Under the pieces are notes generated by a model. That model saw nothing but the letters and a program-made list of their open reading frames with translations. It was not told the origin of the DNA and did no database searches. This document shows, in pieces, positions 4,660 to 27,656 of a stretch of DNA of 64,000 nucleotides. The DNA comes from Candidatus Coatesbacteria bacterium (GTDB lineage Bacteria; RBG-13-66-14; B26-G2; JAUVZD01): the NCBI GenBank assembly GCA_030602715.1, contig JAUVZD010000001.1:270213-334212 (forward strand), in the 5' to 3' direction. How positions within the stretch are numbered: the stretch's first letter is position 1; the number at the start of each line of letters is the position of its first letter. The position numbers and the translations under genes are program-made.

Positions 4660-7242
4660 ATGTTTAATAGAACCATTATAACGATATTGATGATAATCAC
4701 CGCGATTGGGGCGCTGTCCACCTCCAGCCGTGCCGAACTAACCGACAAACTATCGCTGGGGATCGATATGTTCGATCACCAGCTTTTCAATTTAGCCGCT
4801 CATCAGTTCCGGGAATACATCCACCAGAATCCCACCGCATCCGACCTGGACCTGGCGCAGTTCTATTTAGCCCACTGCGACCAATCCCTGGGCAACTATC
4901 ACCAAGCCATTCAGGAATACCGTGACCTGCTCATCACCTACCCCGGCTCCTCCCTGGTTGATGCCGGCTGGCTGGAGCTCTCTCGTTGTTACATGAAGAA
5001 AGGCGATGAGGCAAGCGCCGAGGAGGCACTGCGAAAGGCGCTCAGCCTCCCGATGAAGAAAGAGGTCAACTTCGCCGCCCACTCCGAACTGGGCACTCTG
5101 CTATATAACCAGAATCAATTTGAGCAGGCGGTCTCCGTCTATCTCCAGCTCATGGAGGCCACCCCAGACCTGAACAAGACCGCCTGGGAGAGATACCGCC
5201 TGGCTCAGGTCTATATCACCATGGAAGACTACCAGAAGGCAATAGTCCAACTGGAGTTGATAGACTCAAGTGAACCTCACCCACTGCTCAAGGCTCTAAC
5301 CAACTATCATCTCGCCCACTGCCGGGCGGCTCTGGGGCAGTTGGAAGAAGCTTTAGGAATCCTTGATTACGACCAGCTTTTCCCGGAGGAGATGCTCTCT
5401 CATAAGCTATTCCTGCAAGCAAGCCTGCAGGTGGCGCTAAACGAATATCCGCAGGCTCTGGAGACCTTAAACGAGCTCATAGAGGCAGAGGATTCCATGC
5501 GGTCTCAGGTTCCCATCTTGCAAGACCCAACCATCACCACTGAGGACATCCGCATAATCTCCGCCTGGCTGGATTTTCAGCTGGGAGACCACATCAGTGC
5601 CGAAGGCAAGCTGGCGGAGGTCTATTCCCAGGCGAAGGACGCCGAAACCCAAGCCCAAACTTTGTTTCTGATAGGATACCTCAGCTACCAGAGGGAGAAC
5701 TACCCCTTCGCCCTGGAATATTTCGCCAAGTTCGCCTCCGACTTCCCCCACCATCCCTATCTGGTGCAAGCGATATACTACCAGGGCTGGTGCCACTACA
5801 AAATGGGAGATTATGAGCAGGCCAGGGACATATTCTCCACCCTTCTCGCTCAAAATCCCCAGATTGAGGAGAGCCCCTACTTTGCCTTTCTGGTGGGGGA
5901 GTGCGGCTATAAGACCGAGCACTACCAGCGGGCTATGGAGGATTTTGAGCTCTTCACCCGCAACTACCCCCAAAGCAGTTTGTATCTATACGGTTTTCTG
6001 CGCACCGCCGACTGCCTCTTTCAGCTGGGGGAGAACGAACAGGCGGTTGACCACTACCGTGACTTCATTGATAAATATCCCCAATCCGACATCACCCCCC
6101 TGGCTTACTGGAATCTTGGCAGGGCATATAGCAATCTCGGTCAAACGGAGGAGATGCGCGATGTCTATATTGAGTTTATCACCAACTTCCCGGACCATGA
6201 ACTTGCCGACGATTCCGCCCTGGCTATGGTGAGGTCGCTCTACCTGGAGGGAAAATACGAACTGTGCATCGGATGGGTTGACGACTTCACAGACAGACTT
6301 CCTAAAAGCGACTTTGCTCCCAAGATGCTCTGGTATAAGGGAAAATCGCTCTACGACCTCACCCGCTATGATAGCGCCATGAAGGTTTTTGCCTATATAC
6401 ATAAGAACTACTCCGCCACCATAGTGGGGCAGGATGCGCTCTATTACACCTACCTCACCGACCAGAAATTGGGTAAATACTCCAATCCACTTACCGCATC
6501 CGTTGCCTTCTTGAACGAACATCCCCAGAGCAGTCTGGCTCCAAAAGTCAAAATTTTAGTAGCCCAATACTACAGCGACGAACGAAACTTCAGCTACGCC
6601 ACCAAGTTGTTGAAGGAGATTCTCTCAGAGGAGGAGGATATTGGAATACTCTGTGAGGCTACCGAAAAACTGGCGGACATCTATAAACGCCAGGGGATGG
6701 ATATAGACGCAGCCGAGATTTACGTGTGGCTGGCGGAGCGCATGAAGAGATCGCCCTCCCGCTATGATTATCTGCTAAAGGCGGCGGGGCTCTATAACGA
6801 AGGTGGACTGGCGGAGGAAGCCATAGACATCTATCAGGTCTTTCTGGACGAAATACCCCACGATCCCCGAATAAGCACGGTCCTATACAATCTGGGGTTA
6901 ATTTATAAGGACCTGCGCATGTTTGAAAGCGCTCAGGTGATATTGGATAAGCTGGTGCGGGAGTGGCAAAGCAGTAAGGAGTATCTATTGGGTTGTTTTC
7001 AGCTGGCTTTCGTATATCAATATCTAGCCGACCTTCCCAAAGCCATCAAATATCATAAGATAGTCATATATAACGGCGGGGCAGATCTGGCGGTTCAGTC
7101 TATGTATTGGGTTGGAAAATGTTATTACGATCTGCGAGAGTTTTCGGCGGCGGAGGAATGGTTGAAAAGGCTGGTAAGGGAATATCCCACTCACACCGCT
7201 TGGGTGAATAAGGCAGATGCGCTACTGGAAAAAATGTACTGA
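4660..7242 (+). CDS. Large secreted tetratricopeptide-repeat (TPR) protein
   Basis: 860 aa; N-terminal signal peptide (MFNRTIITILMIITAIGALSTSSRA); repeated TPR-like helical units with W/Y-x-LG-x-Y spacing throughout (e.g. AYWNLGRAYSNLGQ, LYNLGLIYKDLRMF). Confidence 0.7.
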   Translation: MFNRTIITILMIITAIGALSTSSRAELTDKLSLGIDMFDHQLFNLAAHQFREYIHQNPTASDLDLAQFYLAHCDQSLGNYHQAIQEYRDLLITYPGSSLVDAGWLELSRCYMKKGDEASAEEALRKALSLPMKKEVNFAAHSELGTLLYNQNQFEQAVSVYLQLMEATPDLNKTAWERYRLAQVYITMEDYQKAIVQLELIDSSEPHPLLKALTNYHLAHCRAALGQLEEALGILDYDQLFPEEMLSHKLFLQASLQVALNEYPQALETLNELIEAEDSMRSQVPILQDPTITTEDIRIISAWLDFQLGDHISAEGKLAEVYSQAKDAETQAQTLFLIGYLSYQRENYPFALEYFAKFASDFPHHPYLVQAIYYQGWCHYKMGDYEQARDIFSTLLAQNPQIEESPYFAFLVGECGYKTEHYQRAMEDFELFTRNYPQSSLYLYGFLRTADCLFQLGENEQAVDHYRDFIDKYPQSDITPLAYWNLGRAYSNLGQTEEMRDVYIEFITNFPDHELADDSALAMVRSLYLEGKYELCIGWVDDFTDRLPKSDFAPKMLWYKGKSLYDLTRYDSAMKVFAYIHKNYSATIVGQDALYYTYLTDQKLGKYSNPLTASVAFLNEHPQSSLAPKVKILVAQYYSDERNFSYATKLLKEILSEEEDIGILCEATEKLADIYKRQGMDIDAAEIYVWLAERMKRSPSRYDYLLKAAGLYNEGGLAEEAIDIYQVFLDEIPHDPRISTVLYNLGLIYKDLRMFESAQVILDKLVREWQSSKEYLLGCFQLAFVYQYLADLPKAIKYHKIVIYNGGADLAVQSMYWVGKCYYDLREFSAAEEWLKRLVREYPTHTAWVNKADALLEKMY

Positions 7243-8821
7243 TAGGAATAAGCTGGCGCTTTATTCTATTTTCGTCCTCTGTGCAATCCTATGCCCCAGC
7301 GCACAAAGTTGCGCCGACGACGACATAGATAAGAAGGCTGAGGAATCCCTCTTTGCGCCGGATCCTTTCACCGATGTCTATGAATTTTTGCAAAAAGCCT
7401 CTCCCCATAAGTCCGCCTTCCGGGTGGATAGAGTGGAGGAGCTGACCCAGCCGCCAGACGAGCAAGGTGCCGAAAACCACGAACGGCGAGGTTTCTATCA
7501 CACCATAGAGGCTTGCGGGGGATTGGGGGAAAAGAATAGCCGTCAATTTGACGGCATCTACGGTATGGAGAGCAAAATACTCAACCAGGTCATCCTGGGG
7601 AAATATCTATCCCTAGGAAATAGTGGTGCGGAAGGATACCGAGAGAACATACATTTAAAATACGACCTGCTCTTTGACCTCACCTTCGGACGGCAGTTAA
7701 GCTGTGGCTTGGAGTATTTCCGCAACCGATACAGTTACCAATCACCCGAACACCCCGGCACCCCACCAGTTTATTTTTCAACACAAGCAACTGAACATAG
7801 ATATTTTGATATCGGCGCCTTTACCGACCTGGGGAAGTATATCAAAATCTATTTTGACGGCTTTGCCGAATCTGACCACCTGGAAGACGAGAGCTCCAGT
7901 TATAAACACCGCACCTTGGGCGGGGAGTTCTGCGGACAGTTCATCCTGCCAAATTGGGACTATCTAACCAAGGTGGAGTTGGATGTCTATAGAGACTGGA
8001 TGAGTGGAGCCGAAAGTAGGGCTACATTTATAAATATTTCTCTTGAAAACGAACTCCCCATAAAAGACCATCTCTTTCTCACCTTTGGAGGAAGGATTGA
8101 CAGCTACCGCAATCTCATCACCCGGTTCTATCCCACCGCCGGCATCCACCTGCGTATCAACCCCAAGACCGGCTTCTACCTATATTATCAGCCCCAACTG
8201 AGCCGACTTGATTTTCACCATCTCTTCATTGATGAGCGTTATTCCACGGTAAGCGAGCCGCTCAAGCCCACCCAGGAATACACCTCCATCACCGCCGGCT
8301 TCAACTACAACTTCTCCCAGTTGATAGAGAGCAAAGTAGAGTTATACCGCAAGGATGTTCTGGATTACATATACTACACTGATTATGATGGTCTCATCAC
8401 TCCCGCCAATCTCCACCAAGCCACCATCTACGGCATAAAGATAAGCTACTCCTTTAGAGCCAGCGAACGTTTTAATCATTACGCCTCTCTCAACATAGAG
8501 GATATAATTGATGACGAGAACGCTTTCCAGGTTATCCCTTACCACCCCCGCATCACCTTTGACGCCGGAATTGAACTCTCCCCCCTATCCTTATGGGAGT
8601 TGAGCATCGGGGGCAGATTTGTCGGTGACCGCCCCACCTCCTATCCGGAGACTACTCTGGACTCATATTTTATCCTCAACACCCAATCGGTTCTGTGGAT
8701 AACCCCCTATCTCGGTTTTGACCTGCACCTGGACAACCTGCTCAACTCCCAGTATGAGGAAATATCCAACCTCACCCATCCCGGTCGCTTCATCTCCGCC
8801 GGCTTGCGGCTGAAAATATAG
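7217..8821 (+). CDS. Hypothetical secreted protein, beta-rich, possibly outer-membrane associated
   Basis: 534 aa ORF overlapping the TPR gene end by 26 nt; hydrophobic N-terminus (LALYSIFVLCAILCPSAQSC); alternating aromatic/polar stretches typical of beta-strands. No recognisable catalytic motif. Confidence 0.4.
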   Translation: MRYWKKCTDRNKLALYSIFVLCAILCPSAQSCADDDIDKKAEESLFAPDPFTDVYEFLQKASPHKSAFRVDRVEELTQPPDEQGAENHERRGFYHTIEACGGLGEKNSRQFDGIYGMESKILNQVILGKYLSLGNSGAEGYRENIHLKYDLLFDLTFGRQLSCGLEYFRNRYSYQSPEHPGTPPVYFSTQATEHRYFDIGAFTDLGKYIKIYFDGFAESDHLEDESSSYKHRTLGGEFCGQFILPNWDYLTKVELDVYRDWMSGAESRATFINISLENELPIKDHLFLTFGGRIDSYRNLITRFYPTAGIHLRINPKTGFYLYYQPQLSRLDFHHLFIDERYSTVSEPLKPTQEYTSITAGFNYNFSQLIESKVELYRKDVLDYIYYTDYDGLITPANLHQATIYGIKISYSFRASERFNHYASLNIEDIIDDENAFQVIPYHPRITFDAGIELSPLSLWELSIGGRFVGDRPTSYPETTLDSYFILNTQSVLWITPYLGFDLHLDNLLNSQYEEISNLTHPGRFISAGLRLKI

Positions 8822-8838
8822 TTGTTTAAATACAACAT

Positions 8839-8860
8839 ATCTCTCGGCAAGCCGAGAGAT
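8839..8860. terminator. Inverted repeat between convergent genes (putative bidirectional terminator)
   Basis: atctctcggc / gccgagagat perfect inverted repeat 18 nt after the stop at 8821 and 32 nt from the asnB stop on the other strand. Confidence 0.45.
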
Positions 8861-8891: not shown

Positions 8892-10760
8892 TCAAACCAT
8901 ATATCTCTCCCGCCACATCTGGAGAAAGAGCAGAATCCACAGACGATGATAATGGTCCCTCTTCCCCGACCTGTGCTCGGCGACCAATCTTCGCACTCCC
9001 ACCGGTTTCAGAATATCATCCTCCGTAAGTCTTTGCTCGCCGAGATACCGCTCCAGGACGGGCGCCAGTTCCCCCCTAAACCAATCTCCCAGAGGAACCG
9101 CGAAGCCCCTCTTGGGGCGCTCAAAGAGCTCCCTGGGTAGATAGCGTTGGAGCAGACGGCGCAGAAGCAGCTTAGTTTTATTCCCCCTGACTTTCCATTT
9201 CAGCGGAAGCCGAAAAGCGCTCTCCACCACCCGATGGTCCAAGAGGGGAACCCGCACCTCAAGTGAATGAGCCATACTAGCCCTATCCACCTTGACCAGC
9301 AGGTCATCTACCAAATAACTGCTCAGGTCCAAAAGCATCGCCGCTTCCCGCGGGTCCCGTTCCTTCAGTGTGGCACGCATTCGCTCTTCATATTCCGCCC
9401 CGTTCCTCTCCCCCTCAACCAACCATTCCTCACGGAGTATGTCCCCCAAGAAGCGTCTGTCAAATATGGATATCGCTCGCAGGTAAGTCTCTGCCAGATC
9501 ATCCTCATCCTCCAGTCGGCGCAGGCTCTCCCCCCAGGAATCCCGCAAAAGCCCCAGAACCACCCGCAAAGAGCTCATCAGAGGTGACGGTAGGTTCCGA
9601 AATCTCGCCATCCTCCCCAGCCATCTGTAGCGGTCGTAGCCACAGAAGAGCTCGTCCCCTCCGTCGCCGGAGAGGGCAACGGTAACATACCCCCTGGTCA
9701 TCTTGGAGAGCAAGAAGGTGGGTATCGCCGAAGGGTCACCGAAAGGCTCATCATAATAATCCATAAGCAACGGTATCGCTGACAACAGGTCCCGGGGACC
9801 GACATACTGCTCGGTATGCTCACAGCCGAGATGGTGGGCTACCCTTTTAGCAAAGGGCGCCTCATTGTAGGCGGGGTCCTCAAAGCCGATGGTGAATGTC
9901 CTTGGAGGAGACCCTCCCTGCTCAGCCATCAGCGCCACCACCAGGCTGGAGTCTATCCCCCCGGAGAGGAAACTGCCCAGAGGGACATCGCTCACCAAGC
10001 GATCCCTGACCGCCTGACGCAGAATCCGCAGAAACTCCTCCTCAACATCTGCATCGCTCCCCTCCCCCCACTTCACACCGGCTTCACCGATATGCCAATA
10101 CCGCTCCTCCACCAACTCCTTTCCATCAAAGCGAAGGATGGAGCCGGGGGGAAGCTTGCGCACCGACTTGAAGATGGAATGCGGTGCGGGAACATACTGG
10201 AAACGAAGGTAAGCAAGCAGTGCCTGCGGTGAGAGTTCTTTGGAGAACCGGGGTAAGTCAATCAGGGATTTTATCTCCGAGCCGAAAGCTAGGAAACCGG
10301 GGTCGGACAGATAATATAACGGCTTTATTCCCAGCCGGTCTCGGACTAAGTATAACGACCCTTCATCCTCATCCCACAGGGCGAGGGCGAACATACCCAC
10401 AAAACGGTTCACACAACCAATCCCCCACTGCATATAGGCTTTCAGAGCCACCTCGGTATCCGACCGACTCCGAAAACTATGCCCCAACCCCTCAAGTTCC
10501 TCCCTGATCTCCCGGAAATTATAGACCTCGCCGTTATAAGTTATCGCCACACCACCGTCTGAGGAGAGCATGGGGGCGTTCCCGCTCGGTGATGTATCTA
10601 TGACCGCCAGCCGAGCTTGAGCCAAACCCACGGTATGGTCATCGTTTAACCACACGCCTTCGTGGTCCGGTCCCCGGTGGCGGAGGGTGGAGACCATTTT
10701 CTCCAGCGTCCGCAGATCAATCCCACCCGAGAGGGAGAACATCCCCGCTATTCCGCACAT
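8892..10760 (-). CDS. asnB: Asparagine synthase (glutamine-hydrolysing)
   Basis: N-terminal MCGIAGMFS (Ntn Cys2), GMFALALWDED, SGGIDSS PP-loop-type motif. Confidence 0.9.
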   Translation of the reverse strand: MCGIAGMFSLSGGIDLRTLEKMVSTLRHRGPDHEGVWLNDDHTVGLAQARLAVIDTSPSGNAPMLSSDGGVAITYNGEVYNFREIREELEGLGHSFRSRSDTEVALKAYMQWGIGCVNRFVGMFALALWDEDEGSLYLVRDRLGIKPLYYLSDPGFLAFGSEIKSLIDLPRFSKELSPQALLAYLRFQYVPAPHSIFKSVRKLPPGSILRFDGKELVEERYWHIGEAGVKWGEGSDADVEEEFLRILRQAVRDRLVSDVPLGSFLSGGIDSSLVVALMAEQGGSPPRTFTIGFEDPAYNEAPFAKRVAHHLGCEHTEQYVGPRDLLSAIPLLMDYYDEPFGDPSAIPTFLLSKMTRGYVTVALSGDGGDELFCGYDRYRWLGRMARFRNLPSPLMSSLRVVLGLLRDSWGESLRRLEDEDDLAETYLRAISIFDRRFLGDILREEWLVEGERNGAEYEERMRATLKERDPREAAMLLDLSSYLVDDLLVKVDRASMAHSLEVRVPLLDHRVVESAFRLPLKWKVRGNKTKLLLRRLLQRYLPRELFERPKRGFAVPLGDWFRGELAPVLERYLGEQRLTEDDILKPVGVRRLVAEHRSGKRDHYHRLWILLFLQMWRERYMV

Positions 10761-10775
10761 ACAATCACCCCATCC

Positions 10776-13340
10776 TCATTTTTTCTTTGGGGGCATGACC
10801 CCATCGGTGGGCTTCATTGGAATGCTATTGTTGTTGGTGGAGTTGGGTATAGTAATTTCCTCCTGTTCCAGCTCCTGCTCTTCCTCCTCCTTTGCCACCA
10901 GAAGCATGTAGAAAGTCTTGTTCTTGAATATCGCCTCCCGATCCCGCATCAGCCCGGGGAGATTGGCGGCGACATTGTGGCAGTAGCCGATGACTTCCCG
11001 GTCCAGCTTCATCAGCGCCGCCTCCTCCCAGCTTATCCCCTCCACCTTCTTGTGCCAATATGGTCCCAGCCACTTTATCAGCTTGTTAAAACGTTCCCTG
11101 CCCTCTACGGTTGACTCCAATGGAAATTTGTAATCCCCGATTATGTGAGCCACCAAATCCTCACGAAACTTTTTCAGATAGAGTTCCATATCTCCGTCGC
11201 ATTCGCCGAAGAACAGCTCCACAGACTCGTTTTCCTCCGTCTCGGGGTGGTCGTAGAGATAGATTATCATCACCCGGGTGGCTTCCGGACCGGCGTTGTA
11301 GGAAGAGCCGGCCAGCTTCGCCCGCCTTAAAAGCCCCTTCTTGCTGGTGGCATCCAGCATTCCCCCCAGCTTCATCTCCTGGCGAAATCGTTCATCAAAA
11401 CGAGAGCCCCCGCAGTTATCAAACATCTCCTTCAAAAACTGCGCCGCCATCTCTATGTTACAACGGTTTATGTTGCGTAAAAAGTAGCGCTCCTTAAAAG
11501 TCCAATCACCCAGCCGCCTGGATACCAGTTCCTCGCCGTCCCAGAAGGTCATCACATAGTGGGTTGCGCCTATCACATCCGCGGTCATCTGCATATAGCC
11601 GGTAGCCGAGCCCCGTCCCTTACCCGCCCGGTATATGCGCCCACTGCCGGAGATGTGTGCCAAGCCGGACTCCTGGTAGCCAACGGCTATCAGCAGGCTG
11701 ACGAAGGCGTCATCGGAGATATCGTAGATTACCCCCTCCTGCAGACCTCCGGATGAGGGCTGGGGGGTGTAGTTACGGCGGGAGTTGGCACGCCTGCCGA
11801 TCTCCTCAAAGAGATGATAGAGGCTGTAATGGGGATTCTCGGCGTCATAGGCGGGCAGATTGTCCAGGTCCTTGAGGGTGATGGGCACCGGCACCTTGGG
11901 CACATCAAAGGTGGTGTTGAGGATTGCCTCTAAGGTATCGCCGGCGATTATATAGGAGAGTTCTTCTTTCGTGGGCTCATAGTTATATTCCGGAGGAAGG
12001 TTGTCAAAGCGGAGGAGTATCTCCCGCTCCTTTTTCGCATCCACGGAGAAAGTGGACTGATACCACTCCACCATCTCCGCCATATCATCGTCATATACGC
12101 TGGTTATCTCCACCAGCTCCGGAAAATTCACTCCCTTACCCGCCTCATAAAACTCCCAGTAAGCCCCCCGGATTAAATTGAGTGTCCTCTGCAGGGAGCC
12201 GATGCAGGCGGGAGCCACCTCCCCGAAGGGCAACCAGGGACCACGAGTGCCGTAATATAGAAAGTCGTCGCCCTCACCCTTCTGCCGGGTGTAGATGCCG
12301 TCTATACCGTCGGGAAAGGACTGAATCTGCTTTATCCCCCGGCTGGTGTCATAGGGAAAGCCGACGCTGCCATCCCCGAGATGGCGACCTATCAGTTTGG
12401 GGAAGGTGCCGGACATAGCATGGGTTACCGCTATCTCCATCTCCTGTCTGTCGGGGTTGGGTGGAAATGCCAGAAACTCCTCCCCCTCCCGTTCAAAGAC
12501 CAGCAGCGCTGTATATTCCCCCGGCGGAAGAGGACGGGGCGAGCCGAATCTTCCCACATTGCCCCAGCCATACCAGACAAATTCACCCACCGCTTCCTTG
12601 GACAGAGCGTGCGGGTAACCCTCCCGATAACCTATCTCCCCCCGACTGCTCACCTCAAAGACCAGCTCGCCGTCTGAATCGTAGACGCGCAGGTGGATAT
12701 CATCCCTCCCGGCGGGCACCGGATCCAAGGTGTAGCCCACCACCACCTCCTGAGAGACATAGTCGGCATCCTGCACAATCCATGAGCGGAAATCAGCCTC
12801 CTCCAGGACGGCGTAGATTTTTCCGGAATTGTCCAGATACTGCACTCCCAATAGGGAGATAATTCCCCCTCCGTCCACCAGACTGACCTCCACGCTCTCC
12901 CCCCGACCGGGGATATAATAAATATATAGATGTTCCTGGGGATAAGCTATATCCGGCTCGTGAATCTCCCCCTGGATGGAGACGATGGGGTTCTTGATGT
13001 TGAACTGCTCCCCAAAGCCGGTGTATAGAGCATCGCTCTTTCCGTTCAAGGAGAAGGCTACTGTGCCCTTAACCACCAATTTGTAGAGATGACCGCTTGA
13101 CAAGGGGGAAGTGATCATCGGTAATCCGCTTCCCGGAACCGCCAGGTATCGCCCCGGCTCGCTTCCGACGGGGAGCAGAACCGCAAGAAAGATGACCAGC
13201 AAAGCGGAAATAAGACAGATCAGTGGTGGGAAGAAGGGGCGGCGGACATTGACAGCCTCCCGCAAGGAGGGGCGGGGAAGCGAGGGAGCGATCGGTGCGG
13301 AAAGCTCATTCCTTGCGTAAATCTCAGAGCTGATATTCAT
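10776..13340 (-). CDS. Membrane-anchored protein with C-terminal family-1 lytic transglycosylase (Slt-like) domain and a large N-terminal domain of unknown function
   Basis: All three Slt motifs are present: GYQESGLAHIS (E-S), GYMQM (GLMQ-like), SSYNAGPEA (AYNAG). Hydrophobic anchor LICLISALLVIFLAVLL. Acidic C-terminal tail (EEEEQELEQEE). Start set to ATG 13340 (MNISSEIY), 1 nt from the glgC stop; the ORF track extends to 13379. Confidence 0.65.
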   Translation of the reverse strand: MNISSEIYARNELSAPIAPSLPRPSLREAVNVRRPFFPPLICLISALLVIFLAVLLPVGSEPGRYLAVPGSGLPMITSPLSSGHLYKLVVKGTVAFSLNGKSDALYTGFGEQFNIKNPIVSIQGEIHEPDIAYPQEHLYIYYIPGRGESVEVSLVDGGGIISLLGVQYLDNSGKIYAVLEEADFRSWIVQDADYVSQEVVVGYTLDPVPAGRDDIHLRVYDSDGELVFEVSSRGEIGYREGYPHALSKEAVGEFVWYGWGNVGRFGSPRPLPPGEYTALLVFEREGEEFLAFPPNPDRQEMEIAVTHAMSGTFPKLIGRHLGDGSVGFPYDTSRGIKQIQSFPDGIDGIYTRQKGEGDDFLYYGTRGPWLPFGEVAPACIGSLQRTLNLIRGAYWEFYEAGKGVNFPELVEITSVYDDDMAEMVEWYQSTFSVDAKKEREILLRFDNLPPEYNYEPTKEELSYIIAGDTLEAILNTTFDVPKVPVPITLKDLDNLPAYDAENPHYSLYHLFEEIGRRANSRRNYTPQPSSGGLQEGVIYDISDDAFVSLLIAVGYQESGLAHISGSGRIYRAGKGRGSATGYMQMTADVIGATHYVMTFWDGEELVSRRLGDWTFKERYFLRNINRCNIEMAAQFLKEMFDNCGGSRFDERFRQEMKLGGMLDATSKKGLLRRAKLAGSSYNAGPEATRVMIIYLYDHPETEENESVELFFGECDGDMELYLKKFREDLVAHIIGDYKFPLESTVEGRERFNKLIKWLGPYWHKKVEGISWEEAALMKLDREVIGYCHNVAANLPGLMRDREAIFKNKTFYMLLVAKEEEEQELEQEEITIPNSTNNNSIPMKPTDGVMPPKKK

Positions 13341-13341
13341 A

Positions 13342-14679
13342 TCAGGGGTCTTCACCGGATACCGTCCTTTTGAGCACATTCTCCCCGCTTTTCAGAGTCC
13401 GCATCTGACCGTAATCCTCCTCGGCTATATCCGAGCCGATCAGACAGTTTCTCCCGATGACCATTTGGGGAGGAACCGCGCTGTTTTTGCCGATGACCGA
13501 GAGACCGGTGTTCAGCAGGTCGGGAAACTCCCTGTTGGGGATGTCGTCCGCCCCCAGCCCGATACGCACCCCCTCACCGAGGACCACCCTCTTGTCCATA
13601 ATAACCCGGTCCAGAATACAGTCTCTCTGCACCAGGCAGTCGTCCATTATAATGGATGAGATTACCACGCTGTTCTGGTGGACGATGGTGCCGGGGAAGA
13701 TGACCGAATCTACCACCCGCCCGTTGACGATACAGCCTGCGGACAACATACTGTTGTGAACGGAGGCATATTTCCCCAGTTTCACGGGCGGGGGTCCTGT
13801 GCTGGCGGTGAAGATGGGCCAATCCCTGTCGTAGAGGTTCAGCTTGGGCTCGGCGCCCAGGAGGTCCATATTAGCCTCCCAGTATGATTGCAGGGTACCC
13901 ACATCCCGCCAATACCCCTCGTAACGATAGGCATAGAGTTGAGCCCCCCTGCGCAACAGTATGGGGATAATATCTTTACCGAAGTCGTGGCTGGTTCGTT
14001 TTCGGCGGGCGTTTCGCTGTAGTGCATCCAGCAGGACTTTCTTCTTGAATAAATAGACCCCCATTGAAGCCAGGTTGCTCTCGGCTTTCCTGGGCTTCTC
14101 CTTAAAACCAGTTATCCGCCCCTTCTTATCGGTAAAAATTATTCCAAAACGGGAGACATCCTCCGGGGCAACCGGCAGAGCGGAGATGGTTAAGTCGGCA
14201 TCGGTCTTTTTTGCGAAATGGTATAATAAACGGTAGTCCATTTTGTATATGTGGTCGCCGGACAGGACTAGGATATAATTGAAATGACGGGTGGCGATGT
14301 AGCGCCGATTCTGGTAGATGGCGTCTGCGGTTCCCCGATACCAGCCACCGCCCTCGGACATCAACTGCGGCTGAAGGAGCTCCACGCCTCCGCGCCGGCG
14401 GTCCAGGTCCCAGGCTTTGCCGGTAGCGATGTGCTCCATAAGCGAGCGGGGGCGATACTGGGTGAGGACGGCGATGTTATCTATCTGGGAGTTTACGCAG
14501 TTGGACAGGCTGAAGTCAATTATGCGAAACTTCCCCCCAAATGGAACCGAGGGCTTTGCCCGCTTGTCGGATAGCACCGAAAGGCGCGCACCAACCCCTC
14601 CGGCAAGTATCACTGCCAGGACATCATCCACAGTTGAATACCTCATAGATACCTTCGGGAAAATAGTAACATAAGCCAA
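13342..14679 (-). CDS. glgC: Glucose-1-phosphate adenylyltransferase
   Basis: AVILAGGVGARLSVLSDKRAKPSVPFGGKFRIIDFSLSNCVNS, VLSGDHIYKMDY, LASMGVYLF are GlgC hallmarks. Alternative start MRYSTVDD at 14646. Confidence 0.9.
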   Translation of the reverse strand: MAYVTIFPKVSMRYSTVDDVLAVILAGGVGARLSVLSDKRAKPSVPFGGKFRIIDFSLSNCVNSQIDNIAVLTQYRPRSLMEHIATGKAWDLDRRRGGVELLQPQLMSEGGGWYRGTADAIYQNRRYIATRHFNYILVLSGDHIYKMDYRLLYHFAKKTDADLTISALPVAPEDVSRFGIIFTDKKGRITGFKEKPRKAESNLASMGVYLFKKKVLLDALQRNARRKRTSHDFGKDIIPILLRRGAQLYAYRYEGYWRDVGTLQSYWEANMDLLGAEPKLNLYDRDWPIFTASTGPPPVKLGKYASVHNSMLSAGCIVNGRVVDSVIFPGTIVHQNSVVISSIIMDDCLVQRDCILDRVIMDKRVVLGEGVRIGLGADDIPNREFPDLLNTGLSVIGKNSAVPPQMVIGRNCLIGSDIAEEDYGQMRTLKSGENVLKRTVSGEDP

Positions 14680-14874: not shown

Positions 14875-15393
14875 ATGTGCATACGGAGCCGCTGCCACCG
14901 CATCACAATAATGTTCGCTTTCCTGGTAATCCTCTCTACCTTCTCGGTCGGTTGCGATTTTTTCTACAGAAAACAGAAAGCCATTGACCACTATGACCGC
15001 ATAAGTGAGATAGTCAACCGAGTAAACCAGAAAGTGATGCGATTGTATGCGCTCCATGATGCCCTGACCCAGAATAGTATCTCCCTGCAGGACGCCCGCT
15101 ATGAGATAGCAAGCCTCCAGCAGGAATTCAGCGCCGACAAACAGGCATATCTGAACGAATCTCCACCCAAAGACCTTAGAGACGAATACGCCCTCCTCGG
15201 TCAGTGGTTTGATGCGGTGGAAATATCCTTTACCAACTTCATCTATGTCATTGATACCGCAGGAACACAATATGAGGATAAATACTACAACTACCTGATA
15301 GATGCCCTCAATCAACAGGAAGAACTCAACGTCCAATCATACAAAGCCTATCAAAACAAGCTGAGCGAGTTGGGCTTCTATGTTGATGACTAA
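14875..15393 (+). CDS. Paralogous secreted lipoprotein family, member 1 (unknown function)
   Basis: Lipobox FSVGC. Shares the family core with members 2-5: DHY..ISEIV, LYALHDAL, ISLQDAR, PPKDLRDEY, WFD...F..FIYVI, AYQNKLSELGFYV. Likely true start at ATG 14911 (MFAFLVIL). Confidence 0.6.
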   Translation: MCIRSRCHRITIMFAFLVILSTFSVGCDFFYRKQKAIDHYDRISEIVNRVNQKVMRLYALHDALTQNSISLQDARYEIASLQQEFSADKQAYLNESPPKDLRDEYALLGQWFDAVEISFTNFIYVIDTAGTQYEDKYYNYLIDALNQQEELNVQSYKAYQNKLSELGFYVDD

Positions 15394-15470: not shown

Positions 15471-15968
15471 TTGAAGAAGGCACTACTACTATGCACGGTG
15501 GCCGTCTCCATTCTGGCACTGATCGGTTGTTGGAAGAGCGCCTCCGACCAGGCGGAAGAACACTACGAGGCTCTGCGCCCCGTCATTGAAGGAGCCACCG
15601 AAGTTCTGGACGAGATGTATGCCATTGATGAGCAGTTGGGCACCGGCACAATCACCTCCCATGCCGCCCGCAATCGGGTCAACCAGCTGAAAGTAAAATT
15701 CCTATCCCTGAAGGGACAGCTCCCTTCAATCAAAGTGCCCAAGGACTTTGAGGATGAGTTCCAGCTGGTGAACAATTGGATGGACCAGGGCGAAAAGACC
15801 TTTGACTTTATGCTTGTGTCCATTGAGAAGGAGGCCGCCAGCATTGCGGAGTTTGACAGAGCCCTGAACGATTTCTATTCCGCTTGGGACAAAGAGACCA
15901 TGATGTATGATTTGATGGATGAAGCCTATAACAAGCAGATGACTGAGAAGGGCGTGGAACTCTACTAA
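15471..15968 (+). CDS. Paralogous secreted lipoprotein family, member 2 (unknown function)
   Basis: TTG start with RBS aaaggag; lipobox LIGC. EEHYEALRPVIEGATEVLDEMYAIDEQLGTGTIT, VPKDFEDEF, NWMDQGEKTFDFMLVSIEKE, FYSAWD, AYNKQM..GVELY. Confidence 0.7.
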   Translation: MKKALLLCTVAVSILALIGCWKSASDQAEEHYEALRPVIEGATEVLDEMYAIDEQLGTGTITSHAARNRVNQLKVKFLSLKGQLPSIKVPKDFEDEFQLVNNWMDQGEKTFDFMLVSIEKEAASIAEFDRALNDFYSAWDKETMMYDLMDEAYNKQMTEKGVELY

Positions 15969-16107: not shown

Positions 16108-16635
16108 ATGAACAAGCTCACAACCTTCATCTCCGCCCTGGTCTTAACCATTATGGTGATAGTCGCAAGCCCACTCAAGGCGTCGGGCGAGGATGGTGGC
16201 AAGAGTCCAGCAGACCAAGCCAGGGAGCATTATGAGGTTCTAACCTCCATCGTTGAAGGAGCCATCGCCGCTCTTGACGGCATGTATGCCCTTGACGAAA
16301 CGTTGGCTGATGGCACCGTTACTTTGGAATCAGCCAGATCCAAAACCATAGAGCTGAAGGAGGAGTTTCTGTCCCGGAGGGCGGAGCTTGATCACATTGA
16401 TGTGCCAGAGGACTTTGTGGAAGTGTTCAACATGTTGCTCAACTGGATGAATCAAGCCGAAAAGACCTTTGACCTTATGCTGGTAACCATTGAGAAAGAG
16501 ACCGCCGAAGCTGAGGAGTTTGATAAAGCCCTGGACGATTTCTACTCCGCCTGGGATTTGGAAATTCAGATGTATGATGAGATGACCGAAGCCTATGTCC
16601 AGCAGATGGTTGAGTTTGGCTTGGACCTCTACTGA
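16108..16635 (+). CDS. Paralogous secreted protein family, member 3 (unknown function)
   Basis: Signal peptide without Cys (SPase I type). REHYEVLTSIVEGAIAALDGMYALDETLADGTVT, VPEDFVEVF, NWMNQAEKTFDLMLVTIEKE, FYSAWD, AYVQQMVEFGLDLY. Closest to member 2. Confidence 0.7.
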   Translation: MNKLTTFISALVLTIMVIVASPLKASGEDGGKSPADQAREHYEVLTSIVEGAIAALDGMYALDETLADGTVTLESARSKTIELKEEFLSRRAELDHIDVPEDFVEVFNMLLNWMNQAEKTFDLMLVTIEKETAEAEEFDKALDDFYSAWDLEIQMYDEMTEAYVQQMVEFGLDLY

Positions 16636-16783: not shown

Positions 16784-17371
16784 ATGAAGAAATTTATAAT
16801 TATCTTTTCCGTCCTGCTACTGCTGGTCTCTCTATCGGGCTGTGAGAGGGTCAAGCAGATTTTCGGCAAAGGAGAGATTGAACTTGACCCCGCCACTCAG
16901 GCAGAAGAACATTACAATCAGCTCAAACCACTGGTAGAGAACGCCGGTCAGTGCCTGGACTATCTCTATGAGCTTGACGAACAGCTGAGTGACGGCACAG
17001 TCGCTCTGGACTACGCCCTTCAGCGCACCAATGAGCTGAAACAGAACTACGCCATGCAGAGGGATACCCTCAAAACGGTCAAGGTGCCCGCCGATTTCCA
17101 GAACGAATGGAAGATGACTCAGCAGTGGTTTGACGAAGGATACAGACTATTTGACCTGATGGCAGACACAATCTATAAGGAAAAAGCCGGCGGGGGACCC
17201 CCCTTTGAGAAATCTATGGATGTCTTCTACGCCGCTCAGGACAGAGAGTTTCAATTCTACGAAAATATGACCGCCGCCTATGACGCCAAGATGGAATCGT
17301 ATGGCTTCACAATGGAAGATACACCAGGGGGCGGTGACTTCCCCAAAGCCATACCCAAAGGTGGAAAGTAG
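16784..17371 (+). CDS. Paralogous secreted lipoprotein family, member 4 (unknown function)
   Basis: Lipobox LSGC. EEHYNQLKPLVENAGQCLDYLYELDEQLSDGTVA, VPADFQNEW, QWFDEGYRLFDLMADTI, FYAAQD, AYDAKMESYGF. Gly-rich C-terminal extension. Confidence 0.7.
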   Translation: MKKFIIIFSVLLLLVSLSGCERVKQIFGKGEIELDPATQAEEHYNQLKPLVENAGQCLDYLYELDEQLSDGTVALDYALQRTNELKQNYAMQRDTLKTVKVPADFQNEWKMTQQWFDEGYRLFDLMADTIYKEKAGGGPPFEKSMDVFYAAQDREFQFYENMTAAYDAKMESYGFTMEDTPGGGDFPKAIPKGGK

Positions 17372-17536: not shown

Positions 17537-18061
17537 ATGACGGTCAAAGGTAATAAAAGGAAATTTGTCATCTGCCTGATGTTCCTGGCAGTGGCTTGGG
17601 CTTCATCGGTAAAAGCCCAGGAAGATGATGCGGTGGAGCTGATGGAGCGGATTACCGCCATCGCCACCCACTACGACCAGGTAACCCCCCTGGTGATGGA
17701 CGCTGTGGAGTTGATGGCAGAGTTATATACATATGAGGAACTGCTCCACTCCGACCCTGCCATCGCCGGTCAATCGGTTAAAGAGATTAAGGACCGTTTG
17801 CAAACCCTGACCTCAGAGATTCATACTATAAGCCCGCCCCCGGAGGCTGAGGATACCTTCAACAAACTGCTCCTCTGGTTTGAGAACCTGGAGGAGGTTA
17901 TTGACCTCTTTCTGGTGACCGCCTCGCCAGACTATTCGTCACCTGTGGAGTATCGTCTCTCCGCCTACCGGGAGTCCAAAGCCTGCGAGGCGAAGCTCTT
18001 CACCGAGGCTAAAGATGCGTATATCCAGCTCCTCGGCGATTACGGCATACCACTGGAATAA
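17537..18061 (+). CDS. Paralogous secreted protein family, member 5 (unknown function, most diverged)
   Basis: Signal peptide (FVICLMFLAVAWASSVKA). Family core is recognisable but diverged: THYDQVTPLVMDAVELMAELY, PPEAEDTFNKLLLWFENLEEVIDLFLV, AYIQLLGDYGIPLE. Confidence 0.6.
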   Translation: MTVKGNKRKFVICLMFLAVAWASSVKAQEDDAVELMERITAIATHYDQVTPLVMDAVELMAELYTYEELLHSDPAIAGQSVKEIKDRLQTLTSEIHTISPPPEAEDTFNKLLLWFENLEEVIDLFLVTASPDYSSPVEYRLSAYRESKACEAKLFTEAKDAYIQLLGDYGIPLE

Positions 18062-24360: not shown

Positions 24361-25254
24361 CTAGTAAAGTATCCAAATGACCGCCAATATCCACAAAACT
24401 ATGGCCGCCATCAAGGGTTTGTCCTTGAGCAGGATACGGCTGGGGGCTCCCCCTTCTTGGCGCACGTAGAGAAGATAGAGATAGCGGAAGATGCCGAAGA
24501 CGACGAAGGGGATGGTATAGACCAGATTAGCGGTAGCCATCTTCTCTATAGTCCGCTCGGAGATGGTGTAGAGGGTATATGACATCACTGTGGATGCGGT
24601 AACCACCGCTATCATACCATCTATAAATTGGGTGGAGTATTCCTTCAGGGCTTTGCGGTGTCTGCCCGCTTTTCCCTCCAGAAGCACAAGCTCGTGCCGC
24701 CTTTTGGCGATTGCCAGGAACAGGGACAGGAAGAAGGTGCATACTAAAAGCCAGGTGGAAAGCTCTACCGTAGGCACCAGTGCCTCCACCCCGGCTATCG
24801 CCCGGAGCACAAAACTTATGGAGATGGTGATAACATCCAGGATGATGACCTTCTTGAGGACCAGCGAATAGGAGATATTGAGGACAAAATATATAACCGC
24901 TACCAACCCAAAGGCGGGGGGCAGAACCAGGAAGGAGGCGCTCAGGCTGACCAGGGTGAGGATAATAAAGACCACGAAAGCCACGACCAGCGGTATCCTC
25001 CCCGAGGGAATGGGACGATGTCTTTTTCGGGGATGCGCCTTATCTGAATCCCTGTCAATAATATCGTTGAAGGTATAGACCGCACCCGAGAGCAGGCAGA
25101 AGACGATGAATCCAAGCACGGCGCTTACCAGATAAGCCCAGTTGAAGATGTTTTTGGAGAAGATGAGTGCGGCGAAGACAACCGCATTCTTGGTCCACTG
25201 GGTAGGACGCACCAGCTCCACAATCCCCTTAACCATAGCCGCTCCGCCTATCAA
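24361..25254 (-). CDS. UbiA-family prenyltransferase, decaprenyl-phosphate phosphoribosyltransferase-like
   Basis: NDIIDRDSDKAHPRKRHRPIPSG is the Asp-rich motif of DPPR-synthase-type UbiA enzymes; about 8 TM helices. ATGA start/stop overlap with the upstream GHL10 gene. Confidence 0.7.
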   Translation of the reverse strand: MIGGAAMVKGIVELVRPTQWTKNAVVFAALIFSKNIFNWAYLVSAVLGFIVFCLLSGAVYTFNDIIDRDSDKAHPRKRHRPIPSGRIPLVVAFVVFIILTLVSLSASFLVLPPAFGLVAVIYFVLNISYSLVLKKVIILDVITISISFVLRAIAGVEALVPTVELSTWLLVCTFFLSLFLAIAKRRHELVLLEGKAGRHRKALKEYSTQFIDGMIAVVTASTVMSYTLYTISERTIEKMATANLVYTIPFVVFGIFRYLYLLYVRQEGGAPSRILLKDKPLMAAIVLWILAVIWILY

Positions 25255-26630
25255 CTCTGAGCCTCCTCCATCTCCTTGCGCAGTATGTTTATCCCCTCTA
25301 TACTGGTCTCTTTCCCGATAAAAACATCGTAACCGCCCTCATCTCCACCGATGAAGACCGGGGCATCGGTCAGCCCCACCATCATCTTGGCGACCATAAT
25401 GGCGTGACGATGGGGCACCGCCTCAACCGCCCGGAGGGAGTAAAGCTTTCCGGTGGAGGTGGAAAGCTCCACCACCGGATAGTAGTATTCTATCGGCACC
25501 TGATAGATGGGTGGGGGAAGGTAGCGGTCAAAGAATTCCTCTCTAAAAAGCTCAAATCGCTTTCCTCCTTCATCAGCCAGCCCACCGTAGGCGAAGACCA
25601 CCACCCCCGGGGATTCCAACTGAATACAGCGTTCCATTCTTTCCACCAACGACTGAGGCGTATCCCACCGCCCCCCACTCCGCTCCAGTATCCCCAACCC
25701 GACCACCACTCTGTTCTTGGGCGCTGCGGACAGGTCAACCTGGGCATATCCGCCCATCACATCTGCGGATTCAGCATAGCACATGGGGATGACAAAATCC
25801 ACCAACTCCTCATCTATCCACAGGGGCCAATCCTGAAAGACCTCCTCCCGTGATGTGCTCAGAGAGCCGAAGACCGCGACGGAGAGGGGAAGACCGGGGC
25901 TTGCCCAATCTATGCCCTGGCGAAGACGCTCTATCAGGTCGGTTATGCAGTCCTGCCGCCACTTGATGAAACCGTCGGGGTTATCCCCGGGACTTGTGTC
26001 GTAAATCTCCCTGAAGCGAGCCACCGAGATGGGACTGTAGCCGAAACCATGCTCATAGCGGATGTAGTCCAGATGGAAGCCGTCCAGGTCATAATTACTG
26101 ATTATGTCCAAAAAGACCCCCGCCAGATACTCATTTACCCCCGGCACCCCGGCATCAAGCCAGTATTGGGAACTCCCGTCCCGGTAGGTGCCGTCTTTTT
26201 TACAGCTCAGCCAATCGGCGGGGTAATGATAATCGTCAAGCGTATCCCCCCTGCCGGTAGCGATATAGACCGTCACCCAGGCGTGCAGGTCCATCCCCAG
26301 ACGATGAGCCTCACGGATAGCCAAATCCAGTGGGTCGTAGTCGTCTCCTCCGCCGGCGATGAAGGAGGAGCGTTTCTCCGGGTTGGTAAAGAGCTCATTG
26401 CTCTTGTTGGGGATGTAGAGGGCGTCGGAGCGATAGCGCACCTCAAGAAAGATGGTATTGAAGTTAGCCGCCCGAATCTGGTGGATGACCTCCACCAAAC
26501 GCTTTGGGGTGGGAAACTCCCAGGCGGGAAGCCAGACCCCGCGCATCTCCCCGATTATCTCCGAGCAAGGTGCCAAGGTAGGCCAGGCAAAAAACAGCAA
26601 TAAGAATACAACTCCTCTAAGTCTCTTCAC
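25251..26630 (-). CDS. Secreted glycoside-hydrolase-like protein (GHL10/YngK-like TIM-barrel), tentative
   Basis: Signal peptide; FNTIFLEVRYRSDALY, LHAWV, GFHLDYIRY resemble the GHL10 family. Call by resemblance only. Confidence 0.45.
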   Translation of the reverse strand: MKRLRGVVFLLLFFAWPTLAPCSEIIGEMRGVWLPAWEFPTPKRLVEVIHQIRAANFNTIFLEVRYRSDALYIPNKSNELFTNPEKRSSFIAGGGDDYDPLDLAIREAHRLGMDLHAWVTVYIATGRGDTLDDYHYPADWLSCKKDGTYRDGSSQYWLDAGVPGVNEYLAGVFLDIISNYDLDGFHLDYIRYEHGFGYSPISVARFREIYDTSPGDNPDGFIKWRQDCITDLIERLRQGIDWASPGLPLSVAVFGSLSTSREEVFQDWPLWIDEELVDFVIPMCYAESADVMGGYAQVDLSAAPKNRVVVGLGILERSGGRWDTPQSLVERMERCIQLESPGVVVFAYGGLADEGGKRFELFREEFFDRYLPPPIYQVPIEYYYPVVELSTSTGKLYSLRAVEAVPHRHAIMVAKMMVGLTDAPVFIGGDEGGYDVFIGKETSIEGINILRKEMEEAQS

Positions 26631-26641
26631 CCCATCCCCCC

Positions 26642-27655
26642 TCAGGTTCTCCTCTGGGGGTCAAATTCACCGTTCAACATCAAATGCCACACCTCATCCA
26701 CCTGTTTGGCAACATCCTGGGTGATAATATCCTTATTACTTTCGTCGCGCACAATGTTCACCCAGAAGCCGGCAAGCCCACATTCGTGAGGTCCACCGGG
26801 GAAGTTACCCTCAAGATAACCGCATAATGCTTCATAGGTTGCCCTGTCCAGCGCCCTGACCACGCTGGTCAGCACATAACCCACCTCCACCCAGTTCTGG
26901 TTGGAGTCGGCTCCCACAGCCACCAACCCGGTCTCCGCAGCCGCCGCCAAAACCCCCTGACTTGCCCCCCCGCAGGGAGCAAATATCACCTGACAGCCCC
27001 CTGCAAACATCTCCAAACCCAGCTCCTTTCCCGCATCCTCGTCTGCGCAGGCGCAGAAGCCGCCGGGAAGGACCTCCGCCCTTAGGGTTAACTCATCGTT
27101 GGAATATTGTAAGCCGTCTATAAAACCCCGCATTATATCCCGGCTGAAGTCGGTGTGGTCTGCGCCGATGAAGCCCACCTCTCCTTTCGCCAGCACATTG
27201 CCCACCACCACCCCACCCAGCACACCGGCGGCATAATTATCAAAGTTATAACTGGCTACATTGGGCAAATCCAGAAGGGAGTCAAAGACCACAAAATTGA
27301 CTTTGGGATGCTTAATTGCCGATTCGCCGACCTTCTGGTGGAGACCTCTGGGAGCTACTATTATCAGTTTTGCCCCCCTCTCAAGGCTAACAGTTATTGC
27401 TTCCTCGGCTTCCTTCCGGGTGGTCGGCTCCAACACATCTATGGTCAGGGCATACTCGTCTATCACCCTCTGGCACCCCACCCAGATGGCGGAGTTGTAG
27501 CTCTTGTCGTCCTTGCTTCCCGGCGCAAGGATTAACACTATCTCACTTTCACCCACCCCCCCCTTTAAGGGTTTTCCGCAGGAGACAAGGGCAGAGACTA
27601 TCGCAGAGGATAGAAGAAGCGTCAGTGCAAAGAGACCTATCCTTCCTTTACACAT
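26642..27655 (-). CDS. BMP-family (PnrA-like) substrate-binding lipoprotein, tentative
   Basis: Lipobox LVSCG. Start set to ATG 27655 (MCKGRIG), 1 nt after the NlpC/P60 stop; the ORF track extends to 27712. Periplasmic-binding-protein-like pattern (IVLILAPGS, GFIGADHTDFS). Confidence 0.45.
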   Translation of the reverse strand: MCKGRIGLFALTLLLSSAIVSALVSCGKPLKGGVGESEIVLILAPGSKDDKSYNSAIWVGCQRVIDEYALTIDVLEPTTRKEAEEAITVSLERGAKLIIVAPRGLHQKVGESAIKHPKVNFVVFDSLLDLPNVASYNFDNYAAGVLGGVVVGNVLAKGEVGFIGADHTDFSRDIMRGFIDGLQYSNDELTLRAEVLPGGFCACADEDAGKELGLEMFAGGCQVIFAPCGGASQGVLAAAAETGLVAVGADSNQNWVEVGYVLTSVVRALDRATYEALCGYLEGNFPGGPHECGLAGFWVNIVRDESNKDIITQDVAKQVDEVWHLMLNGEFDPQRRT

Positions 27656-27656
27656 C

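Follow-up and report, generated by a model that had tools for sequence, protein, structure and literature searches.

A divergent, multi-module protein of Candidatus Coatesbacteria is a probable membrane-anchored family-1 lytic transglycosylase

The window analysed here is a 64,000-nucleotide stretch of a Candidatus Coatesbacteria contig (JAUVZD010000001.1), and the gene under study is a single unbroken open reading frame (ORF) on its minus strand, listed with a stop codon that ends at 10776. It is flanked by glgC and by an asnB-type gene (Table 1). We consider it likely that the product is a periplasmic family-1 (SLT/GH23 fold) peptidoglycan lytic transglycosylase (LT), held in the inner membrane by an N-terminal signal anchor and built on an architecture specific to Coatesbacteria. 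Residues are numbered throughout from the ATG at 13340.

Table 1. Features of the gene, its predicted protein modules and its immediate neighbours (window positions)
Feature	Residues	Position	Strand	Remarks
Whole lytic transglycosylase gene (predicted function)		10776..13355	-	859 amino acids (aa) from GTG 13355; 15 full-length homologues
Predicted hydrophobic anchor	38-60	13161..13229	-	PPLICLISALLVIFLAVLLPVGS; Kyte-Doolittle 19-residue maximum 3.1; translation checked
Domain 1, β-sandwich	62-192	12765..13157	-	motifs G..YK..V.G, DA.Y, H.Y.YY..G.G, Y.DN.G
Domain 2, immunoglobulin (Ig)-like β-sandwich	197-305	12426..12752	-	model and fold similarity
Low-confidence segment	306-377	12210..12425	-	motifs FPY...R, G(I/V)..(I/V)Y...FLYY
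PG_binding_1-like three-helix bundle	378-445	12006..12209	-	LQRTLNL ... ITSVYDDDMAEMVEWYQSTF; insertion between helices 1 and 2
Helical linker	446-540	11721..12005	-	DNLPP, DN.PAYD, SLYH.F.E.G; 15/95 columns invariant
Divergent SLT core (family-1 LT, GH23)	541-700	11241..11720	-	motifs I-III
Codon of Glu557, predicted single catalytic acid/base	557	11670..11672	-	invariant; translation checked
Helical C-terminal extension	701-812	10905..11240	-	most conserved part (WLGPYWHKK.EGISWEEAALMKLDREV)
Disordered tail and stop	813-854	10776..10904	-	model confidence (pLDDT) <50; 24% mean identity; acidic then basic
glgC (glucose-1-phosphate adenylyltransferase), directly upstream		13342..14679	-	NCBIfam PRK05293 478 bits (equivalog cut-off 470), TIGR02091 433 bits, both above cut-off
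asnB-type glutamine-dependent amidotransferase, 15 nucleotides (nt) downstream		8892..10760	-	TIGR01536 496 vs 267 bits
Terminator-like hairpin, ~30 nt past asnB		8839..8860	-	9-bp stem and T-rich tail; consensus scan only

The catalytic assignment begins with three motifs that an earlier note on this DNA had read in the C-terminal part of the protein, and which are indeed present there: YQES (555-558), GYMQM (581-585) and SYNAGPEA (680-687), lying 65-80% along the chain. The core runs from YQE557S through an enlarged ‘clamping’ loop, G581YMQ, an insertion of ~60 residues with a β-hairpin and an N..E.GAQFL helix to S680YNAG. Family 1, as set out for MltD, is recognised by an ES motif in the catalytic helix and by a motif II that sits in a clamping loop (PMC11327851). 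In our model the Glu-Ser of motif I stands at the end of helix 543-558, and alignment with Pseudomonas aeruginosa Slt places motif I on QES, motif II (G581-Y-M-Q584) on ATGLMQ and motif III (S680-Y-N-A-G684) on AAYNAGPG. The codons for YQES occupy 11667-11678, as checked by translation. Across 16 aligned sequences (35-95% identity), E557, G581, Y582, M583 and Q584 are invariant, while Y681, N682, A683 and G684 are at least 90% conserved. Glu557 is also kept in two distant relatives, P0021 and P0026.

This conservation bears directly on the idea that the SLT-like domain is catalytically dead, and that the protein serves as a tether from the inner membrane to the wall, binding peptidoglycan in a structural or regulatory role. 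Such a tether could well carry several binding-type modules, a divergent catalytic domain and an active-site loop that, as here, is poorly modelled (pLDDT <50). However, the catalytic Glu and both substrate-binding motifs are held invariant across relatives of 35% identity, and conservation is highest in the catalytic half (50-52%, vs 31-37% for the N-terminal modules). Because this pattern is unlike that of a degenerate enzyme, we give the dead tether almost no credence.

Evidence beyond the motifs comes from distant homologues and from the predicted fold. SLT is the sole Pfam family matched by the protein and by 12 of the 16 family members, the best of them with an E value of 3.8e-4. The distant homologue P0021 (1014 aa) passes the curated Pfam SLT cut-off (29.8 vs 21.3 bits), and hhalign joins it to residues 185-722 with a probability of 99% (E 5e-18), its LQES, SAKGIYQ and AAYSRG falling on YQES, SATGYMQ and SSYNAG. 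P0026 gives the same motif-on-motif alignment at 98%. At Pfam's own threshold, the link to SLT is only transitive, running via P0021. When a profile of the core that includes the distant relatives is compared with the PDB, P. aeruginosa Slt is the top match, not significant (E 0.12-0.46) and colinear over four motifs (QES, ATGLMQ, N..GA.YL and AYNAGPG). The model reveals a lysozyme-like α-helical fold that superposes on solved LTs, and LTs are its best structural matches. By motif and fold evidence, the assignment of the C-terminal part as a family-1 LT domain, very divergent and below the Pfam threshold, holds.

A GH23/lysozyme-like fold could nevertheless serve another chemistry or substrate, as in a hydrolase of the goose-lysozyme or chitinase type, or an enzyme acting on another envelope glycan selected by the lectin-like domain described below. 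We regard this as unlikely, since the protein retains the full set of three family-1 LT motifs, its model matches LTs best, and a PG_binding_1-like module adjoins the catalytic domain, as in known wall enzymes. A non-rigorous check for a second conserved acidic catalytic residue identified none.

Compared with the well-known members of PF01464 and GH23 (Slt70, MltC and MltE of Escherichia coli; Slt and MltD of P. aeruginosa), whose family cut-off the Coatesbacteria sequence does not reach, the domain is considerably expanded. The catalytic Glu is separated from motif II by 23 residues, vs 14 in PaMltD (E144...G159), the ~60-residue β-hairpin insertion parts motifs II and III, and a helical extension of ~110 residues follows at the C-terminus. 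This extension (residues 701-812) probably forms an enlarged lower lobe of the catalytic domain. In further contrast to these members, the protein has no Slt70 superhelical U/L domain, LysM or lipobox, and its anchor is a transmembrane segment. The chain ends, as had been pointed out, in an acidic stretch (EEEEQELEQEE), which is followed by a basic PPKKK.

The N-terminal half, which the earlier note had treated as one large uncharacterised domain, is in fact a chain of recognisable module types. It opens with the N-terminal anchor that the same note had proposed, and which we find as the one hydrophobic segment of the protein (residues 38-60, the only one with a hydropathy above 1.6), preceded by five K/R residues. 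The model shows a helix at 39-55, and homologues have a hydrophobic stretch at the equivalent site. The segment is predicted to be an N-in/C-out signal anchor or an uncleaved signal peptide. A lipoprotein anchor was rejected, as the Cys in PLIC lies outside a lipobox context and is not conserved.

Residues 62-362 are modelled as β-strands and match only Ig-like, PorU and GH2-type sandwiches. Foldseek comparison of the full model with the PDB returned only GH2 N-terminal sandwiches with a TM score of ~0.09, which is too weak for naming a family and indicates no more than two β-sandwiches. An Slt70-type superhelix in this region, which would have made the protein an ordinary Slt70-like enzyme, was not found: in place of the superhelical U/L domains, residues 62-362 are β and residues 378-445 are PG_binding_1-like. 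Within the low-confidence segment (306-377), residues 307-358 are modelled with pLDDT <50, yet P329, Y330, G345, F360, L361 and Y362 are invariant.

Domain 1 leads a life of its own. In an exhaustive profile search, about 50 of 65 matches are confined to profile positions ~60-185 and belong to proteins whose architectures are unrelated, which answers the earlier suggestion to look for the N-terminal region outside the Slt context. A hidden Markov model of domain 1 alone finds at least 55 protein clusters among those listed (P0020-P0077), some with tandem copies, and the module (consensus GTYRYD.GEPGEFADAQYRED ... H.Y.YYV.G.G ... YGDN.G.L) is accompanied by PEP-CTERM and PGF-CTERM anchors, DUF11 repeats, Peptidase_C39_2, M23, NAGPA or C-type lectin domains. 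We therefore find that domain 1 is a mobile, widespread extracellular module that has no Pfam or NCBIfam model and merits its own family definition.

What domain 1 may resemble is suggested by its relatives. The window's own copy has no Pfam match, PA-IL (PF07828) included. Two relatives reach 18.1 and 19.0 bits against Pfam PA-IL, below the gathering threshold of 22.5 and near full length (the 18.1-bit match spans profile positions 14-114 of 121). The domain-1 profile retrieves only two PDB entries, 6ygq (E 0.058) and PllA 5odu (E 0.7), both PA-IL lectins and neither significant. Likeness to PA-IL/LecA (P. aeruginosa LecA, Photorhabdus PllA) lies in two stretches, an initial G..Y.v.a.G and a terminal Y.DN.G..v.v, a similarity that is not significant. 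A remote relationship to the LecA lectin fold is probable and not established, and domain 1 differs from PA-IL lectins in being a module inside a large enzyme rather than a free tetrameric lectin.

Residues 378-445 adopt the three-helix bundle fold of PG_binding_1 (PF01471), and match PG_binding_1 bundles, not the Slt70 superhelix. The window segment has no Pfam PG_binding_1 match, and the equivalent segments of three relatives score 12.4-15.1 against a cut-off of 23 bits. The helical linker (446-540) joins this module to the catalytic domain and is kept in P0021 and P0026. Since bundle, linker and core are common to these two proteins, the three together form a supermodule older than the Coatesbacteria family. 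With P0021 the shared region extends to the Ig-like sandwich; the lectin-like domain is a separate addition to the supermodule. We note that P0033, a metagenomic ORF of 185 aa, contains a stretch of ~40 residues near-identical to the helical linker (YQAYNEADPYHSLYHTFWEVGRRVSAERRRYGPP) and is otherwise unrelated; the gene call probably reflects a frameshift or a chimera.

Parts of this arrangement have precedents. A PG_binding_1 module likewise stands N-terminal to the LT domain in phage phiKZ gp144 (family 1H) and in the spore cortex enzymes SleB/SleC, whose catalytic domains belong to a different LT family. The Coatesbacteria protein differs from these in (I) the insertion between helices 1 and 2 of its bundle, which falls below the Pfam PG_binding_1 threshold, (II) a helical linker of ~95 residues before the catalytic domain, and (III) two β-sandwiches and a membrane anchor ahead of the bundle. 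As to the anchor, MltG (YceG family) is presented as an inner-membrane-anchored LT (PMC8135044), and here, too, a single N-terminal transmembrane anchor would place the LT domain in the periplasm beside the membrane. The catalytic fold family is different (YceG, not SLT, as judged by the lack of a YceG Pfam match), and the two proteins have no accessory modules in common.

The family is tiny and nearly confined to the uncultured phylum Coatesbacteria. Among 5.8 billion proteins, a word-indexed search returned 15 clusters with 35-95% identity, full-length at about 800-870 aa except for one truncated protein. Only about seven representatives of the family emerged when 1.84 billion 50%-representatives were searched exhaustively with a profile. 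Named members come from Candidatus Coatesbacteria metagenome-assembled genomes, apart from a few copies that their submitters labelled ‘Firmicutes’/Bacillota. Nearly all named copies are annotated as ‘hypothetical protein’, and one as ‘lytic transglycosylase domain-containing protein’. In a scan that took one genome per GTDB species, eight loci turned up; those with names are Coatesbacteria, and one lies on a 2.6-Mb chromosome.

The ORF is a genuine, intact protein-coding gene under purifying selection, as follows from comparison with a twin contig (L006, 95% identical), in which synonymous divergence (dS) is 0.138, non-synonymous divergence (dN) 0.022 and dN/dS 0.16. The same twin informs the choice between three candidate starts, ATG 13340 (854 aa), GTG 13355 (859 aa) and ATG 13379 (867 aa). 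The start used in the earlier note, ATG 13340, follows the glgC stop as TGA-T-ATG, that is, with a gap of 1 nt, and the twin has ATA at this position. GTG 13355 is kept in the twin, with AAGGA 9 nt upstream, and gene calling on the twin's assembly had placed the start there. Translation therefore probably begins at GTG 13355, with a predicted overlap of 14 nt with glgC; the start annotated before would lie 15 nt too far downstream, and the 1-nt gap holds good only if ATG 13340 is used after all. The gap of 15 nt to asnB is exact.

We compared the neighbourhoods of 15 loci. GlgC is encoded directly upstream, overlapping or up to a few tens of nt away, in the window and in L001, L003/4, L006/7, L012 and L015, which comprise the twin, two relatives of ~46-48% identity and two Coatesbacteria loci (L012, L015) of only ~30% identity. 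This adjacency is absent from three clades (L002/L005/L010, L008/L009 and L013/L014), whose upstream genes are metK-ahcY-unknown, TPR genes or a GYF/FapA-like gene. The glgC and asnB sandwich described in the earlier note is thus conserved on one side only: glgC recurs in divergent relatives, whereas asnB follows in no locus other than the window and its 95% twin. Genes downstream in other loci encode a baeRF-like protein, an outer-membrane-protein β-barrel, a methyltransferase or a convergent Zn-ribbon/PEGA protein; a further variable neighbour is a protein of 287 aa without a Pfam match. Apart from glgC, there is no conserved operon partner in the 15 loci, and we read the glgC linkage as retained ancestral synteny.

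The recurrence of glgC, overlapping or tightly spaced even in the ~30%-identical loci, might instead reflect functional coupling to glycogen or ADP-glucose metabolism in a glgC-LT operon, for example with an α-glucan or a glucose-containing envelope polymer as the substrate or as the co-regulated product. We find this very improbable: the adjacency is missing in three clades, GlgC is cytoplasmic while the body of the LT is predicted to be on the outer side of the membrane, the surroundings contain no further glg genes, and nothing in the protein resembles α-glucan enzymes. Whether the window genes share a transcription unit is another matter. The hairpin past asnB is a possible end of a glgC-LT-asnB unit, and this boundary is only suggestive, because the number of terminator-like sites in the promoter and terminator scan does not exceed the shuffled expectation. 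We note that the asnB-type protein, which passes the generic asparagine synthase model, also scores 595 bits against TIGR03108 (XrtA/PEP-CTERM system amidotransferase), under its cut-off of 817 bits. Some AsnB homologues amidate peptidoglycan.

The same comparison speaks to a specialised ‘space-making’ transglycosylase that would open the wall for one envelope-spanning machine, such as a secretion system, pilus or flagellum, like the dedicated SLT-domain enzymes that gene clusters for such machines encode. An enzyme that cuts locally at a target could well be membrane-anchored and carry additional modules for binding protein or glycan, and substrates with a Por_Secre_tail (type IX-type) are encoded a few genes away in two relatives. 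Against this, no machine genes recur across the loci. The gene is surrounded by housekeeping genes in each of them, with glgC, metK/ahcY, mfd and TPR genes among the neighbours. We accordingly judge this role rather improbable, and the idea of a dedicated machine or operon was dropped, since apart from glgC the neighbours differ between clades. As no secretion, pilus or flagellar genes recur beside the gene in the 15 loci, a housekeeping role in wall remodelling or turnover is the likely one, not the assembly of a particular machine. Ordered by likelihood, the rivals run from another chemistry, through a machine-dedicated enzyme and a link to ADP-glucose, to the dead tether.

The host itself is a diderm with a cell wall, as shown by window genes for an NlpC/P60 endopeptidase, for a polysaccharide deacetylase and for Omp85. 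These stand on an ordinary chromosome with DXP synthase, NAD kinase, CysRS and an EPSP-synthase-family enzyme. A mobile or phage origin was rejected, given the flat composition, the housekeeping flanks and the lack of any tRNA gene found in the window.

We can now describe how a periplasmic, membrane-held LT of this kind would work; membrane topology, substrate, chemistry and the roles of the accessory modules are here inferred from the family. The N-terminal segment would span the inner membrane, leaving the short basic N-terminus on the inner side and the remainder in the periplasm. The Ig-like and PA-IL-lectin-like sandwiches would act as a spacer from membrane to wall, and possibly as a second glycan-binding module, while the PG_binding_1-like bundle would dock the enzyme on the sacculus. 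A glycan strand would then be held in a groove lined by the clamping/motif II loop (G-R-G-S-A-T-G-Y-M-Q) and SYNAG, and lengthened by the ~60-residue insertion and the conserved helical C-terminal lobe. Glu557, at the end of the YQES helix, would act as the single general acid/base in cutting the MurNAc-β1,4-GlcNAc bond: it would protonate the glycosidic oxygen and subsequently deprotonate the C6 hydroxyl of MurNAc, leaving a 1,6-anhydroMurNAc end, as in other family-1 enzymes.

Several observations weigh against this reading as a whole. The protein's own Pfam SLT score is 13.6 bits (E 0.05), under the curated cut-off of 21.3, and with such a score motif spotting alone would not prove SLT membership. 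Nine of the 16 sequences carry Cys in place of the Ser of the ES motif, and neither the protein, its full-length profile nor the core profile has a significant sequence match in the PDB; no NCBIfam model matches the protein either. A signal anchor and a cleaved signal peptide are not distinguishable here, the peptidoglycan-binding and lectin assignments draw only on fold-level or sub-threshold similarity, and the function of every family member is a prediction. Finally, the recurrent adjacency of glgC is not explained by the model that we favour.

The earlier note had also suggested that the N-terminal region targets the enzyme to a specific envelope structure. Because this region consists of lectin-like, Ig-like and PG_binding_1-like modules and a linker, the structure targeted would most simply be peptidoglycan itself, possibly together with a glycan bound by the lectin-like module. 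A bolder version would make the family a new LT subfamily, in which the PA-IL-like module binds a lineage-specific envelope glycan, perhaps derived from NDP-glucose made by the co-located glgC-type enzyme, the PG_binding_1-like module binds the wall, and peptidoglycan is cut only where both meet. In that version, the family might also be the main or even the sole SLT-type enzyme of Coatesbacteria. We consider this unlikely.

For a candidate phylum, these results supply a probable cell-wall-remodelling enzyme together with a domain map. New elements are the particular chain of modules, the presence of a lectin-like module at the N-terminus of such an enzyme, the strong enlargement of the catalytic domain and the confinement of the family to a single candidate phylum. 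Precedents existed for joining a PG_binding_1-type module to an LT (phiKZ gp144, SleB/SleC) and for tethering to the inner membrane by one helix (MltG, which has a different fold). The family shows how far SLT can drift with its motifs kept, through an enlarged clamping loop, large insertions and the change of Ser to Cys, and it reveals a supermodule of PG_binding_1-like bundle, linker and SLT core that is common to a few other uncultured lineages. Current understanding is not overturned; the catalogue of LT architectures is extended in a way that is useful for annotation.

Several further gene groups were seen around the locus. On the plus strand of the window, five tandem paralogues of 165-195 aa (14875-15393, 15471-15968, 16108-16635, 16784-17371 and 17537-18061) have hydrophobic, lipoprotein-like N-termini and no Pfam match; they cluster by BLASTP and are kept in the twin contigs. 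Also kept there is a plus-strand pair in which the gene for an 860-aa TPR protein (4660-7242) overlaps by 26 nt that for a 534-aa protein (7217-8821), the latter with a match to a TonB-dependent-receptor-type β-barrel and no other Pfam match. Envelope-type genes at 25251-28640 (minus strand) and 37820-39067 (plus strand) encode a GHL10-family glycosyl-hydrolase-like protein, a Bmp/PnrA-type binding protein, an NlpC/P60 endopeptidase that has an SH3 domain, and a polysaccharide deacetylase. A Wzz/GNVR tyrosine-kinase-like protein is encoded at 55210-57573 and the Omp85 protein at 61776-63119. Two of the loci that do not have glgC upstream, L002 (18448-20765) and L005 (18295-19515), contain four to six small genes for proteins of 73-84 aa without a Pfam match, downstream of a MurJ/Polysacc_synt-type gene.

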